A DNA stretch of 64,000 bases from Candidatus Bathyarchaeota archaeon (GCA_963753065.1 CAVWAQ010000002.1:145863-209862), one strand, 5' to 3'; shown: positions 5,769 through 11,334, counted from the first letter of the stretch. The notes: generated by a model not told the origin, from the sequence alone. Numbers and translations: made by a program.

Positions 5769-6779
5769 TTGTCATGCGAGAGCTCGGTCAAGCAAGGCCA
5801 AGACAAGCTGACACACGCATCAGTCGCGATAATTGGACTCGGCGGCTTGGGTGCGGCTGCTGCAGCGTATCTCACAATGGCAGGCGTCGGGAGGATACGA
5901 TTGGTTGATCAGGATACGGTTGAGACTCACAATCTTCAGAGACAGATACTCTATGGCATAGATGACGTTAGGGCGCCGAAGGTTGAGGCGGCAGCTCGAA
6001 GACTCAAGACCCTCAATCCTCAGGTCCGCCTTGAACAAGTCGCAGAGAACGTCCGGGAAGCGAACGTTGACGCAATAGTCTCCGACTGCGACTGCATCGT
6101 AGACGGACTCGATAACATGGCGACGCGATACATAATCAATCGCGCGTCCGTGAAGCATTCTATTCCGTACGTCTTCGCAGGCGCAATCGGGATGGAAGGG
6201 AACATCTCAGTATTCAGACCACCAGCAACCCCATGCTTGGAGTGCATAATGCCGGGTCTCGATGATGCCTCTTTGCCGACCTGTGAGACGCGAGGAGTGC
6301 TTGGAACAACTACGGGAAGCATCGGTGCACTCGAAGCGGCGGAGACGATCAAACTGCTTGCCGGGATTCAGCCGTTGCTTGAAGGGAAACTACTCATCTG
6401 CGATCTTCGTGAGATGGATTTCAGAGCAATAGACATCCAAATCAGACGAGACTGCAAGGTGTGTCAGCTCAAGCAGCCAATTCGCGAAGTCGAGCAGGAA
6501 AGACTAAGCTGGCTTTGCGGCGATAGCACCGTGAACGTAAATCCGTCGAAGCAGTTGAAGATAGACCTGAGATCGGTCCCCCGGCGCCTCGGCAAGAGTG
6601 CTAGGGTTCATCTGAGAACTCCGATGGCTCTAGTCTTCCAATATGATCAATACGAGGTCACTCTTTTCACCCACGGCAGAATGCTGATCAAGGGCATCAG
6701 TTCTGAACAAGATGCAATCGAAGTCTATCGAAAAATCATGGACAAGGTTAGCGTGAAAGGAAGGAGCCGATCCGCGTGA
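5769..6779 (+). CDS. E1-like ThiF/MoeB/UbaA family adenylyltransferase with a C-terminal extension of about 100 aa
   Basis: Nucleotide-binding motif VAIIGLGGLGAAAAAYLTMAGVGRIRLVDQDTVETHNLQRQILY and CxxC pairs (CLEC, CKVC). The stop overlaps the start of the next gene (ATGA). Confidence 0.8.
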   Translation: MSCESSVKQGQDKLTHASVAIIGLGGLGAAAAAYLTMAGVGRIRLVDQDTVETHNLQRQILYGIDDVRAPKVEAAARRLKTLNPQVRLEQVAENVREANVDAIVSDCDCIVDGLDNMATRYIINRASVKHSIPYVFAGAIGMEGNISVFRPPATPCLECIMPGLDDASLPTCETRGVLGTTTGSIGALEAAETIKLLAGIQPLLEGKLLICDLREMDFRAIDIQIRRDCKVCQLKQPIREVEQERLSWLCGDSTVNVNPSKQLKIDLRSVPRRLGKSARVHLRTPMALVFQYDQYEVTLFTHGRMLIKGISSEQDAIEVYRKIMDKVSVKGRSRSA

Positions 6780-7465
6780 GCGTCACAGAATCAGTCATTC
6801 AGAGCTCAACTCGAACTGTCTTTCGAGGAAGAGCAGTGTGCTTGATCTCAGGAGGCATGGACTCCCCTGTCGCTCTCTGGCTGACAATGAAGGCTGGCAT
6901 GGCTCCAATCGCTGTCTTCTTCGACAGCTACCCGCTGGCAGACAGAAGAGGCAGAGAGATCGCTCTGCTCAGCATCAAAAAGGTGCGGGACTACTTGGGT
7001 GCTCCTCCGATCAAAACGTACGTCGTCGGGCACTCTCCAGACCTGTCAGAGATCGTTTCCTCCTGCCAGCGGAACTTGGCGTGCGTGATCTCGAGACGAA
7101 TGATGTTCAGAGTCGCGAGCGAGATCGCGCACAGGGAGATGGCGGACTGCATAGTCGCAGGAGATGTCGTGGGACAGAAAGCCAGCCAGACACTGCACAA
7201 CCTGTTTGTGACAGATGCGACCACAGATGGGCTTCCCATCATCAGACCTCTTGTCGGCATGAACAAGGACGAAATCGAACGACTCGCTAAGACTATCGGG
7301 ACGTTCGAACTCTCAACAAGCCCCGGCGTAGCAGCTTGCGGCATCCCGACACGCAAGCCTAGGACGCACTCTCGATCTGAAGAGATAGCGAAGTCCGAGA
7401 CGTACCTAGATCTGGATCATATGGTTTCACGTGCGCTCGAGAACGCGCAGATCGTGGACGCATAG
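6776..7465 (+). CDS. PP-loop ATPase resembling the C-terminal catalytic domain of tRNA sulfurtransferase ThiI (mini-ThiI with no THUMP or rhodanese domain)
   Basis: SGGMDSPVA PP-loop, a GDVVGQKASQTL motif and a conserved Cys in CGIPTRKP (as in ThiI CTIFTP). Translationally coupled to the upstream E1-like gene. Confidence 0.7.
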   Translation: MSVTESVIQSSTRTVFRGRAVCLISGGMDSPVALWLTMKAGMAPIAVFFDSYPLADRRGREIALLSIKKVRDYLGAPPIKTYVVGHSPDLSEIVSSCQRNLACVISRRMMFRVASEIAHREMADCIVAGDVVGQKASQTLHNLFVTDATTDGLPIIRPLVGMNKDEIERLAKTIGTFELSTSPGVAACGIPTRKPRTHSRSEEIAKSETYLDLDHMVSRALENAQIVDA

Positions 7466-7793: not shown

Positions 7794-7907
7794 TGATCAA
7801 ACAAAAAGCTGATGCCCCATGTCAGCAGAAATCGCAGCGTTAGTTCTCATTCTTGGTTCAATAGACTTATACGGCAAGAATCGAAGTTTCGGTTGCCGGG
7901 GGAAGAC

Positions 7908-8009
7908 GCCGGGGTCGGTCAGATGTGATGCGACCACCGAAGGCCGAACGGTTCAGGCGGCAGCCTGCAGAGCTGCAGTATATGGGTTCGACTCCCATCC
8001 CCGGCTCCA
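7908..8009 (+). tRNA. tRNA-Cys (anticodon GCA) with a 26-nt intron between positions 9 and 10
   Basis: 5' exon GCCGGGG-TC, intron about 7917-7942 (GGTCAGATGTGATGCGACCACCGAAG), then D arm GCCG/AACGGTTC/AGGC. Anticodon arm is GCAGC-CTGCAGA-GCTGC, variable loop AGTAT and T arm ATGGG-TTCGACT-CCCAT. The acceptor 3' strand CCCCGGC gives a perfect 7-bp stem with the 5' strand, followed by discriminator U73 (the Cys identity element) and an encoded CCA. The spliced length would be 76 nt. A second copy of GCCGGGG lies 13 nt upstream (7895-7901). Confidence 0.6.
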
Positions 8010-8892: not shown

Positions 8893-9082
8893 GCACTCAT
8901 GATGCCGTAACTGCTCCACTTTGAGGCTGATGATGTGTTGGCCGTGCAAAGCTAGATACCCAGCATCTTGCGGAGATTTTTCTGACGGAGCGCTTTGAAA
9001 TCAGTCTCTACGGCCCAAAAGATGACACAACTCTCCCCGTTCGGAAGATCACATACCGATCATTTGCGGTCATTTACGGTTA

Positions 9083-9193
9083 TGGCGGGCGGGGCAGGAT
9101 TCGAACCCGCGACTCCAGGCTCCGGAGGCCTGTGCCCTATCCTGGCTAGGCGTCGGGAGAAACTACGCAGTCTATACCCGCCCATACCCGCCC
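9083..9193 (-). tRNA. tRNA-Arg (anticodon CCG) with a 23-nt intron between positions 9 and 10; the upper coordinate includes an upstream duplicate of the acceptor segment
   Basis: Read on the minus strand: acceptor GGGCGGG-TA (9183..9175), intron about 9174..9152 (TAGACTGCGTAGTTTCTCCCGAC), D arm GCCT/AGCCAGGATA/GGGC with A14, G18G19, A20 and A21. Anticodon arm is CAGGC-CTCCGGA-GCCTG and T arm GCGGG-TTCGAAT-CCTGC. The acceptor 3' strand CCCGCCC is followed by G73 and an encoded CCA ending at 9083. The spliced length would be 78 nt. A second GGGCGGGTAT copy lies immediately 5' (9193..9184). Confidence 0.65.
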
Positions 9194-9390
9194 GACATTG
9201 CAGCCAATAGCAAGCGAGAGCACATCATTTCTCCAGCCTGCGATCGCAGGCAGATACTTTCGTGAAAGATACTTAAGTTACGTCATTGACCAATCAGCCG
9301 AGTCGACATTCTCAGTGTCTCCCCAAATCTATTCAACAAGTTACATCTGTACAATGCCCATCCATACGCGGTGACTCGGCGGAAGCACAA

Positions 9391-11334
9391 ATGCCCTCAA
9401 CTCTCACGAGATTCAAGGAGCAATGCAATCAAGCCATAACATCGTCCGTTCAGCAACTCTATCATCTCGACTGCCCGGACCCCATGCTTGAGGAGCCCCC
9501 ATCACAAGAATTCGGTCAGTTGGCCTCTTCTATCCCGTTTGAACTTGCAAAAACACTGAAGACCAGTCCCCCGGAAATCGCAAAGAAGATAGCAGGTCAG
9601 ATTGTCCCATCCAAGTTTGAACTATTAGGCCGAGTTGAACCCGCAGGATCAGGATACGTGAACTTCCATTTAGATTTCAGCAAGGCCGCGCGGGAGATTC
9701 TCACGGTCGCGGTGTCGGCAGGAAAGAAGTATGGACTGGATGCGACGGCAGAACCGAAGAGGATCGTGGTCGAGCACACCAGCGCGAACCCAAGTGGCCC
9801 ACTTCACTTGGGGCACGCAAGAAACACTATCCTAGGTGATGCGCTCGCTAGGCTTCTGAGAGCTAGAGGTCATAGAGTTCAGACAAGGTTCTACGTCGAC
9901 GACGTGGGAAAGCAGGTCGCAATGCTCGCTTATGGGTACTCCCTCCTAGGCGAGCCTAAGCCCATCGGAAAACCAGACCAATGGTTGGGTCTACTATATG
10001 CATGCGTGAACTGCGCGGTACAAATCGAAACCCTGAAAGCTGAGATTTCACGTCTTCGCGAAACCTCCGATCCTGAACAGAAAGCTCCAGAGCTGACAAA
10101 GGAACTCGACGACTGGACAACAGTAGCCAAAGAGCTCGAGTCCATCGACTCGACACTGTTCTACAGGACTGTCGAAGCGGTTCGCTCAAGAACTGAGCCA
10201 ATGCGGGAGGTTGAGCAGATCGTCGTCCGATACGAGAAGGGTGACGAGAAGACGCGGAGGATCGTGAGGGGAGTCGCCGAATTGTCACTCGAAGGCATTC
10301 GCGAGACTCTCAAGCAGATGGAGGTCACCTTTGATGAGTGGGACTGGGAGAGCGAGTTGGTTTGGAGTGGCGAAGTCCGAGATTCGATGAAACGATTGTC
10401 CTCGACTCCATTCGCGATCACGGACGGAACATCGCTCGCGCTTGATGTGGACAAGATCGCGAAGACTTACGGACTGGACCGGACGCTCGGATTCGCCGAG
10501 AATTACGAAGTGCCCCAGGTAACACTTGTCAGGAGCGACGGGACGACCCTCTACGTTACGCGCGACATCGCCTACTCGATCAAGAAGTTCCGTGACGCTG
10601 ACATTGTTGTAAACGTGATAGGCTCGGAACAGAAACTCGCCCAGCTGCAGCTGAAACTGGCCCTCTATGCGCTGGGTGCCAAGCATATCGCGGAGAATCT
10701 GATTCATTACGCATATGGAATCGTCGAGCTGCCAGGAGTGAAGATGTCCAAACGCAGGGCACGATACATCAGTGTCGATGAAATCATCAACCAAGCCGTT
10801 TCGCGCGCGCAAGAGAAGATATCGTCCAGAGAGGAAACCCTGTCTGAGAAAGATCGGACGAACATCAGCAAGACAGTGGGACTGGCCGCGATAAAATACG
10901 CCATGCTCTCGACATCGAGTGCGAAGACTATCACGTTCACTTGGGATCGTGTGCTAAGCTTGGAAAGGAACAGCGCCCCTTTCATCAACTACGCTTACAC
11001 TAGGGGAGGCGGAATACTGTCCAAAGCCGGCGAGGTCCAGGAAGACCCAGACTACGCTGCCTTGACTGACCCATTGGAACACCTACTGATCCTCCAGATA
11101 GGCAAGTTCCCTATGATCTTCGCCGAGTCTGCAGATAGACTGAGACCTGAGCAGGTCGCCGCCTACGCAAATGTGCTTGCTGAGAAATTCCACGAATACT
11201 ACGAGAAAGTGAACGTCCTTCGAGCGGAAACACCAAAGCTGAAAGCCGCGAGGCTAATGCTGATTCGTGCGTTGAGGATCGTTCTAGCGAACTCGATGAA
11301 TGTGCTTGGTATGGATTTGTCTGAAAGAATGTGA
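9391..11334 (+). CDS. argS: Arginyl-tRNA synthetase (class I)
   Basis: HIGH-type motif HTSANPSGPLHLGHARN and a KMSKR-type motif GVKMSKRRARYI, with Arg-tRNA synthetase domain order. The ORF opens at 9286, but the conserved N-terminus begins at Met 9391 (MPSTLTRFKEQ). Confidence 0.9.
   Translation: MPSTLTRFKEQCNQAITSSVQQLYHLDCPDPMLEEPPSQEFGQLASSIPFELAKTLKTSPPEIAKKIAGQIVPSKFELLGRVEPAGSGYVNFHLDFSKAAREILTVAVSAGKKYGLDATAEPKRIVVEHTSANPSGPLHLGHARNTILGDALARLLRARGHRVQTRFYVDDVGKQVAMLAYGYSLLGEPKPIGKPDQWLGLLYACVNCAVQIETLKAEISRLRETSDPEQKAPELTKELDDWTTVAKELESIDSTLFYRTVEAVRSRTEPMREVEQIVVRYEKGDEKTRRIVRGVAELSLEGIRETLKQMEVTFDEWDWESELVWSGEVRDSMKRLSSTPFAITDGTSLALDVDKIAKTYGLDRTLGFAENYEVPQVTLVRSDGTTLYVTRDIAYSIKKFRDADIVVNVIGSEQKLAQLQLKLALYALGAKHIAENLIHYAYGIVELPGVKMSKRRARYISVDEIINQAVSRAQEKISSREETLSEKDRTNISKTVGLAAIKYAMLSTSSAKTITFTWDRVLSLERNSAPFINYAYTRGGGILSKAGEVQEDPDYAALTDPLEHLLILQIGKFPMIFAESADRLRPEQVAAYANVLAEKFHEYYEKVNVLRAETPKLKAARLMLIRALRIVLANSMNVLGMDLSERM

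Follow-up and report, generated by a model that had tools for sequence, protein, structure and literature searches.

In the archaeal bulge-helix-bulge (BHB) splice motif, two bulges of 3 nt are separated by a 4-bp helix, and the precursor is cut after the second nucleotide of each bulge. Introns at positions other than 37/38, described in Thermoproteales and Thaumarchaeota (PMC4090602, PMC4033280, PMC8450103), place their splice sites in two such 3-nt bulges flanking a 4-bp helix between exon and intron, and their removal restores the cloverleaf. We analyzed a 64,000-nucleotide stretch of DNA from Candidatus Bathyarchaeota archaeon (GCA_963753065.1 CAVWAQ010000002.1:145863-209862; hereafter the window), in which a tRNA-Arg(CCG) gene on the minus strand is interrupted between positions 9 and 10 and is preceded by a second copy of its own acceptor 5′ strand. 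Like the introns described in other archaea, the tRNA-Arg intron is short and lies away from the anticodon, and its position is specific to the clade, falling at 9/10, ~17/18, 59/60 or ~32 of tRNA-Arg(CCG) in different clades of Bathyarchaeia. In every defining feature that sequence can show, it is a new member of a kind already known, the non-canonical tRNA introns of archaea. What sets it apart from the introns in the literature searched is a conserved copy, in the leader, of the acceptor 5′ strand, and it is this upstream repeat, not the intron, that is the new element.

Two other groups of tRNA genes invite comparison. Genes for split and permuted tRNAs (Nanoarchaeum, Caldivirga, Thermofilum; PMC3218864, PMC4390854) likewise carry leaders and trailers outside the tRNA that are selected for pairing, in their case pairing that produces the splicing endonuclease's substrate, and this leader-trailer complementarity is the closest functional analogy to the arrangement described here. 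In those genes, however, the extra sequence builds the BHB itself, between two transcripts or between permuted ends, whereas the tRNA-Arg copy is proposed to occupy a competitor strand within a contiguous gene; the two tRNA-Arg exons follow each other colinearly on a single strand, with 23 nt between them, so that the gene is neither split nor permuted. The direct repeats of SSV- and pNOB8-type elements (PMC3293823) also consist of a 5′ tRNA segment repeated upstream of an intron-containing copy, but they measure tens of nucleotides and lie on either side of a kilobase-scale element that has an integrase, whereas the repeats of tRNA-Arg, and of a tRNA-Cys gene in the same window, are 7-10 nt long, stand 3-6 nt apart with nothing between them, are conserved through a deep clade and occur in two tRNAs.

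Our literature search found no paper describing tRNA introns of Bathyarchaeia, and what it returned on archaeal tRNA introns, incomplete in coverage so that an earlier description is possible, made no mention of a leader copy or pseudo-acceptor strand; as far as the literature shows, the conserved copy is a new feature. Pairing between the leader and the 3′ end of pre-tRNAs influences RNase P and must be resolved before 5′ maturation, and the known pairings of this type are incidental or inhibitory and are not copies of the acceptor strand. The tRNA-Arg leader copy, in contrast, would mimic the acceptor strand over its full length, under selection and in connection with splicing.

A tRNA-Arg(CCG) gene interrupted between positions 9 and 10

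The minus-strand sequence of 9200..9083 is caatgtc-GGGCGGGTAT-GGGCGGGTAT-AGACTGCGTAGTTTCTCCCGAC-GCCTAGCCAGGATAGGGCACAGGCCTCCGGAGCCTGGAGTCGCGGGTTCGAATCCTGCCCCGCCCGCCA, with the decamer GGGCGGGTAT at 9193..9184 and again at 9183..9174, followed by AGACTGCGTAGTTTCTCCCGAC and GCCTAGCC and closing with GCCA at 9083. Rfam model RF00005 matches 9094-9151 of this strand at 33.1 bits and over model positions 10-63 only, as a break at 9/10 predicts. When 9183..9175 is joined to 9151..9083, the resulting 78 nt are called tRNA-Arg(ccg) by ARAGORN, with a 7-bp acceptor stem, the anticodon CCG, a D loop AGCCAGGAUA carrying A at position 20, G73 and an encoded CCA. Exon 1 is needed for the cloverleaf that ARAGORN calls, the unspliced sequence is rejected, and using the upstream copy of the decamer as exon 1 gives an identical 78-nt spliced product. 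Scores of the relatives follow the same division: intronless orthologues reach 62-65 bits over positions 1-71 of the Rfam model, and interrupted ones 32-36 bits over positions 10-63. The second Rfam tRNA match in the window (7942-7998, plus strand, model positions 9-63) belongs to the tRNA-Cys gene, and a more permissive scan of the window by E-value threshold disclosed no tRNA beyond these two. The interruption explains why standard tRNA finders miss such genes; ARAGORN reports no tRNA in the raw window.

A sequence-only reading of the window had proposed a 78-nt tRNA-Arg(CCG) with a 23-nt intron at 9/10 and the arginine features A20, CCG, G73 and encoded CCA. All of these features are present in the spliced sequence, the covariance scans do not reject the parse, and ARAGORN and 20 further distinct sequences from relatives agree with it. 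The locus is accordingly annotated here as a putatively functional Bathyarchaeia tRNA-Arg(CCG) gene interrupted between positions 9 and 10.

The BHB cleavage rule places both splice sites in a complete motif. The outer helix h is formed by U(-1)G1G2G3 and C11C12U13A14, the central helix H by C4G5G6G7 and the CCCG at intron nucleotides 18-21, and the inner helix h′, AGA paired with UCU, closes the intron loop. The two 3-nt bulges are U8-A9|U and A-C|G10, with the predicted cuts after the second nucleotide of each. This geometry is the same in 21 of 21 distinct intron-bearing sequences, in all of which exon 1 is unvarying. In a structure alignment of 18 sequences from relatives with the 9/10 intron, the whole named structure is paired in 97.6% of cells, compared with 42-57% in slid controls; H is paired in 98.6% of cells and varies through G-U pairs only, and h is paired in 93%, with the U(-1):A14 pair found in 13 of the 18 sequences. 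All four pairs of h′ (4/4) have changed on both sides, among A-U, G-C and G-U, and the observed covariation was matched by none of 500 shuffles. The tRNA-Arg splice sites fit the archaeal hBHBh′ motif, and the intron is predicted to be spliced by a protein enzyme of the EndA type.

The interruption can be followed through the relatives of the neighboring argS gene, which encodes arginyl-tRNA synthetase (ArgRS). ArgRS relatives numbered 32 in GTDB genomes, nearly all of them metagenome-assembled genomes (MAGs) of Bathyarchaeia/Bathyarchaeota from peat and soil, with identities up to 94%, and a further 80 loci came from metagenomes. The flanking sequence retrieved with argS, a few kb long, contained 96 matches to tRNA-Arg(CCG), mostly just upstream of argS and divergent from it. 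The state of the tRNA gene follows the ArgRS tree. Most clades have an uninterrupted tRNA-Arg(CCG), and the 9/10 intron is found in the whole clade of the window (ArgRS 73-98% identical) and in one deep branch represented by L022 and L023 (47-48%). A further clade (L082, L084 and L086) carries an intron of ~39 nt in the D loop, near 17/18, upstream of argS and with H formed by CUAG:CUAG; the GTCTAGTG at the 3′ end of this intron looks like a duplicate of the exon sequence GCCTAGCC because CUAG is self-complementary and forms H. An intron of ~41-42 nt in the T loop, at 59/60, is present in another clade, just upstream of argS, in L009, L027 and L032 (also in L092, L095, L100, L102, L107 and L072), with H formed by UUCG:CGAA and the T stem serving as h, and these genes fall below the Rfam gathering threshold. 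In L013 (3769-3793 region), L016, L031, L064 and L078 the tRNA is broken after about position 32, and each is a gene with several introns or else a fragment of a split one; L078 and L031 continue with CCGGAGCCT ~37 nt further on, only to be interrupted once more, and L013 has an intact tRNA-Arg(CCG) copy ~3.3 kb from the broken one.

Close orthologous loci carry the same interruption and the same repeat as the window. Distant Bathyarchaeia with an uninterrupted tRNA and no repeat form separate clades on the ArgRS tree, so that the uninterrupted state is an evolutionary difference and not an assembly error. These comparisons show the interruption in the window to be a stable, inherited feature.

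A leader copy of the acceptor 5′ strand

The duplication of the decamer, also pointed out by the sequence-only reading, is recovered by Tandem Repeats Finder (TRF) as a repeat of period 10 at 9174-9193, with 2.0 copies and 100% identity. With 12 similar short tandem repeats reported by TRF in the window, the decamer repeat is by itself statistically unremarkable, and it gains its significance from comparative data. Those data uphold the duplication but not the decamer as its unit. The exact repeat of GGGCGGGTAT is confined to the sub-lineage of the window (7 distinct sequences), and the unit conserved over 21 distinct sequences is C + GGGCGG(G/A), centered on a heptamer and positioned 3-5 nt upstream of the true 5′ end. 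Six positions of the heptamer have zero entropy and the seventh, which is A in four lineages, has 0.70 bits; the C before the heptamer, C(-1′), and the U(-2′) ahead of it are nearly unvarying. Entropy is 1.1-1.9 bits per column in the spacer, the intron loop and the leader upstream (spacer alone, 1.1-1.4). Nine variants of the 3-nt spacer occur (TAT, CAT, CTT, TTT, GTT, CCT, TCC, TCT and TAA), along with the 5-nt variants GCCTA and GCCTG, and the last U of the spacer is able to pair with A14.

The copy was scored as present when at least 6 of its 7 bases matched within 30 nt upstream of the gene, and only distinct leaders were counted. By this measure it is found in 17 of 18 leaders of genes with the 9/10 intron and in none of 53 leaders of orthologues without it. 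The lone exception (L046/L047), which lies upstream of argS within the intron-9/10 clade, has the shortened leader copy GUCGGG-AU together with a tRNA body bearing A14G, G18A and U54C, a broken D stem and the 3′ strand CUCGCCC; this tRNA-Arg is probably a pseudogene. The copy persists between lineages whose ArgRS proteins are only 47-48% identical and whose leaders are unalignable (L022/L023 and the window clade). A leader copy was looked for in the orthologues with T-loop (59/60) and D-loop (~17/18) introns and none was found; the splice motifs of these genes make no use of the acceptor strand. In this distribution, presence of the repeat tracks the 9/10 position of the intron specifically.

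The tRNA-Cys(GCA) gene on the plus strand of the window has the same device. The sequence-only reading had likened the two genes in both the duplicated 5′ segment and the position of the intron; the first likeness holds, while the positions appear to differ. Parses of tRNA-Cys at 8/9 and at 9/10 both yield a valid tRNA-Cys, and the geometry of the splice motif assigns the intron to 8/9; ARAGORN reads the spliced sequence as tRNA-Cys(gca) of 76 nt. The motif is relaxed, with H formed by C3G4G5:CCG plus a G6xA mismatch, h reduced to 2 bp, and h′ a hairpin of 4-8 bp with compensatory changes. The heptamer copy stands 5-6 nt upstream of the true 5′ end and is unvarying in 8 distinct sequences, and the purine-rich spacer is variable. 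The copy begins 22 nt after the TATA-like CTTATAC, and position 1 of intronless genes is ~25 nt from the TATA element; the tRNA-Cys copy is probably at or near the 5′ end of the transcript. A scan for T-arm and acceptor sequences through L001-L113 (~0.75 Mb) found the same architecture only in tRNA-Arg and tRNA-Cys, plus one doubtful match in L038.

For tRNA-Arg, almost every one of the 22 leaders listed from relatives has a conserved CCTTAAGTATC upstream, and the TTAAGTAT-type motif stands ~76-83 nt from the copy in the clade of the window, the distance in L023 being 34-39 nt. A promoter at TTAAGTAT would imply a leader of ~50 nt that includes the heptamer copy, and on this reasoning the tRNA-Arg and tRNA-Cys copies should both be transcribed.

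Proposed role of the copy and competing explanations

We propose, at a probability of about one half, that formation of the splice motif depends on the true 5′ acceptor strand and that the leader copy serves as a placeholder on the 3′ acceptor strand until splicing has taken place. The predicted motif takes up positions 1-7 and 11-14, that is, the 5′ strands of the acceptor and D stems, and because it occupies these strands the motif and the cloverleaf are mutually exclusive; left to itself, the G/C-rich 7-bp acceptor stem would win the competition. The leader copy C + GGGCGGG is complementary to G73 + CCCGCCC (9086..9093) and would form an 8-bp helix with them as soon as they are transcribed. 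The precursor would then combine a pseudo-acceptor stem with T and anticodon arms of the normal form, the motif hairpin would take the place of the D arm, and the true 5′ strand would be left free for the splicing endonuclease. Excision and ligation would remove H and h′, the true 5′ strand would displace the copy with the help of the D stem and tertiary contacts, and RNase P would then cut off the leader together with the copy. The tRNA-Cys(GCA) precursor, with its intron at 8/9, would use an equivalent placeholder made of its own heptamer, GCCGGGG.

Folding models of the precursors are consistent with this proposal. When the T and anticodon arms are enforced, the minimum free energy (MFE) fold has the helix between leader copy and 3′ strand in 11 of 11 tRNA-Arg precursors, and in the same folds of the nine window-clade precursors the true 5′ strand pairs with the intron's 3′ end and the D strand. 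Substitution of A7 for the copy lowers the computed probability of H, P(H), in the window clade from 0.006-0.28 to 5e-6 - 4e-3, a drop of ~40- to 10,000-fold. In unconstrained ensembles, the motif with placeholder reaches ~-51 to -54 kcal/mol against ~-48 to -49 kcal/mol for the cloverleaf and is ahead in 8 of the 9 window-clade precursors, the cloverleaf winning in L026; without the copy the motif ensemble reaches only ~-36 to -44 kcal/mol. For tRNA-Cys, 8 of 8 sequences have a helix between leader copy and 3′ acceptor strand in the unconstrained MFE fold, and P(H) falls from 0.003-0.55 to 1e-8 - 3e-3 without the copy.

Several observations weigh against the placeholder proposal. Covariation of the placeholder helix is unscorable, as neither strand varies, so that the evidence consists of conservation and co-occurrence, which are phylogenetically non-independent; on the tree, genes with the 9/10 intron fall essentially into one large clade and one deep branch, and just two tRNA families could be examined. 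The fully unconstrained MFE fold of the tRNA-Arg precursor is a rod in which the copies pair in a shifted register with CCUGCCC and GCCCGCC and the T arm is broken. In the window clade (9087-9098, minus strand) the T-stem 3′ strand and C66-C67 spell CCUGCCC, a second near-complement of GGGCGGG that accounts for the rod-like fold; L022 and L023 lack it and have CCCUUCC instead. We attribute the rod to low-complexity G/C repeats and regard it as an artefact, though it remains a caveat. In L022 and L023 the model does not favor the canonical H even with the copy. After splicing in silico, the placeholder helix is still favored by ~4-6 kcal/mol in the window clade; a nearest-neighbor model thus gives no switch, and the final exchange of strands would need tertiary structure or capture by RNase P, both outside the model. 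The proposed mechanism is drawn from sequence and folding models, and a pairing between UCGGG of the leader and CCCGA of the intron, taken up below, fits the tRNA-Arg data equally well.

The copy might instead be a neutral scar of the origin of the intron, left by a duplication of the 5′ end or by integration and later loss of a mobile element, and have no present function; we regard this as unlikely, though it has evidence in its favor. The model of Sugahara et al. 2012 follows the second route, with an element that carries a 5′ tRNA fragment bearing an intron, and PMC3293823 documents the gain of an intron along with a direct repeat, lying upstream, of a 5′ piece of the tRNA that an integrating element produced. 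In L022/L023 the copy runs on as GGGCGGA-GCCTAG / GCCTGG, which resembles positions 1-15 of the uninterrupted gene (GGGCGGGTAGCCTAG) minus 2 nt, and the tRNA-Cys copy lies at a distance from TATA (22 nt) near that of position 1 in intronless genes (~25 nt). A scar would not, however, be expected to stay constant at 6 of 7 positions next to a spacer and leader saturated with change, or to be retained across lineages with 47% ArgRS identity, and in the apparent pseudogene of L046/L047 the copy has decayed along with the tRNA. The copies stand 3-6 nt apart with nothing inside in two different tRNAs, no integrase occurs among the seven neighboring genes, and no viral contig with the tRNA-Arg 5′ region turned up. 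The scar may well explain how the copy arose, but not why it has been maintained.

The same evidence bears on a check put forward by the sequence-only reading, whether the duplicated decamer marks the remnant of an integrase att site. Such a remnant would consist of repeats flanking an element with an integrase; here the window has 3 nt between the copies, the spacing is 3-5 nt among relatives, none of the seven neighbors is an integrase, and the repeat is constant in the deep clade while its flanks diverge. In viral contigs (IMG/VR) there was no exact match to the 5′ region of the uninterrupted tRNA, and two loose repeat patterns returned 240 loci, none with tRNA context, which we take as chance matches in G/C-rich contigs. 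An att-site remnant is unsupported as a present function, and an origin by duplication or integration is possible.

It is less probable again that UCGGG of the leader pairs with CCCGA of the intron and holds the intron to the leader, the true 5′ strand remaining in a normal acceptor stem; such pairing could delay or regulate formation of the splice motif, or present the 3′ splice site. The pairing is possible in 17-18 of the 18 aligned sequences, with 92.6% of cells paired, and would account for the near-constancy of U(-2′) and C(-1′), and the L046/L047 pseudogene keeps exactly GUCGGG. It leaves the invariance of C4′G5′G6′ unexplained, as well as tRNA-Cys, where 7 nt are constant and only 3 could pair with the intron end. 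A sixth pair, between -3′ and the last base of the intron, fails in 6 of the 18 sequences and shows no association, and the pairing competes with helix H and would therefore oppose splicing.

We consider it improbable that the upstream copy is an alternative 5′ exon, giving a 23- or 33-nt intron and the same mature tRNA in the sub-lineage of the window. The splice motif can form with either copy, each of which does lead to an identical 78-nt product in the window, and seven distinct sequences of the sub-clade retain the exact decamer. In most lineages, though, the heptamer is followed by CT, TT, GT, CC, TC or GC in place of U8-A9, and in four lineages position 7 is A, which would give defective tRNAs; the tRNA-Cys copy is followed by G or A and not by U8, and h′ does not directly follow the upstream copy.

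A pseudogene or an assembly artefact, to which the lack of an ARAGORN call in the raw window and an Rfam score of only 33 bits might point, can scarcely be entertained, given a canonical spliced tRNA, the same architecture in 21 distinct sequences drawn from MAGs and metagenome contigs that were assembled independently, exons that are constant beside a variable intron loop with compensatory changes keeping h′ paired, and a real pseudogene of the clade (L046/L047) that looks clearly different.

Features of the locus and their meaning

The coordinates of the features are collected in Table 1. The divergent pairing with argS noted by the sequence-only reading stands: full-length matches in relatives and the Pfam domains place the argS start at the ATG at 9391, 198 bp from 9193. 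The open reading frame (ORF) it had remarked on at 8995..9210 also exists, on the plus strand and of 71 aa, antisense over tRNA-Arg.

Table 1. Coordinates of the tRNA-Arg(CCG), argS and tRNA-Cys(GCA) features in the window
Feature	Position	Strand	Description	Support
TATA-box-like motif, tRNA-Arg	9269..9276	minus	TTAAGTAT, likely pre-tRNA-Arg promoter	
Leader copy of the acceptor 5′ strand, tRNA-Arg	9187..9194	minus	C + GGGCGGG; proposed placeholder ("pseudo-acceptor") strand	
Spacer, tRNA-Arg	9184..9186	minus	TAT, between leader copy and true 5′ end	
tRNA-Arg exon 1	9183..9175	minus	GGGCGGGTA, positions 1-9	
tRNA-Arg intron	9174..9152	minus	TAGACTGCGTAGTTTCTCCCGAC, 23 nt, between positions 9 and 10; b3 (U), then h′ hairpin AGA...UCU	
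Intron, H 3′ strand	9157..9154	minus	CCCG	
Intron, bulge	9153..9152	minus	AC	
tRNA-Arg(CCG) exon 2	9083..9151	minus	positions 10-76, D arm to encoded CCA	Rfam, ARAGORN
Exon 2, 3′ acceptor strand	9093..9087	minus	CCCGCCC	
Exon 2, discriminator	9086	minus	G73	
Exon 2, encoded 3′ end	9085..9083	minus	CCA	
argS	9391..11334	plus	arginyl-tRNA synthetase, divergent from tRNA-Arg	Pfam tRNA-synt_1d, DALR_1, Arg_tRNA_synt_N
TATA-like motif, tRNA-Cys	7866..7872	plus	CTTATAC	
Leader copy, tRNA-Cys	7895..7901	plus	GCCGGGG, identical to the tRNA-Cys acceptor 5′ strand	
Spacer, tRNA-Cys		plus	GAAGAC, between leader copy and exon 1	
tRNA-Cys(GCA)	7908..8009	plus	whole gene	
tRNA-Cys exon 1	7908..7915	plus	GCCGGGGT	
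tRNA-Cys intron	7916..7941	plus	26 nt	
tRNA-Cys exon 2	7942..8009	plus		

The tRNA-Arg leader contains further sequence features. The palindrome GCCTGCGATCGCAGGC at 9236-9251 (minus strand) lies between TTAAGTAT and tRNA-Arg, and its second half (GCAGGC) can pair with GCUUGC ~20 nt downstream into a leader hairpin at 9205-9241 (minus strand); relatives keep the hairpin pairing with other sequences, GCGAG/CUCGC and GUGAG/CUCGC. The palindrome could be an RNA structure of the leader or a protein-binding site in the divergent promoter region of argS and the tRNA. The GCTCGCTAT motif, which precedes the copy by 14-21 nt, was set aside as a promoter, since it was judged not TATA-like and corresponds to the 3′ strand of the leader hairpin. 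A box C/D RNA in the leader was likewise rejected, the AUGAUGU...CUGA-like motifs not being conserved among relatives when compared by eye. Directly downstream of the tRNA-Arg CCA, at 9060-9080, is a second short tandem repeat (TCATTTACGG, 2.1 copies, plus strand) with no apparent conservation in the few bases seen of the relatives' trailers.

The seven neighboring genes include members of the ThiF, ThiI, ArgRS, PMT and Fer4 families, and two have no Pfam match. Immediately upstream of tRNA-Cys, at 5769-7462 on the plus strand, are a gene for a ThiF-family E1-like protein and a short gene for a ThiI (PP-loop) protein. Enzymes of the ThiI family act in the synthesis of 4-thiouridine at tRNA position 8, and the adjacency of this position to both introns is probably a coincidence.

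With introns at 9/10, ~17/18, 59/60 and ~32 of a single tRNA species, Bathyarchaeia resemble Thermoproteales in carrying tRNA introns at several non-canonical positions. Such introns raise a folding conflict, in that the splice motif is built from exon sequence needed elsewhere in the mature tRNA, and at 9/10 the competitor is the strongest helix of the molecule. A leader copy that tracks the position of the intron in two unrelated tRNAs suggests how this conflict is resolved. More tentatively, introns at positions 8-10 may be kept only together with a pseudo-acceptor strand in the leader, which would then be an obligatory cis-acting folding device, with splicing preceding RNase P cleavage; pseudo-acceptor pairing would also give the precursor a surrogate acceptor/T minihelix. 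If this is true, it would amount to a previously unrecognized rule of archaeal pre-tRNA architecture and would provide a general signature for locating such introns.

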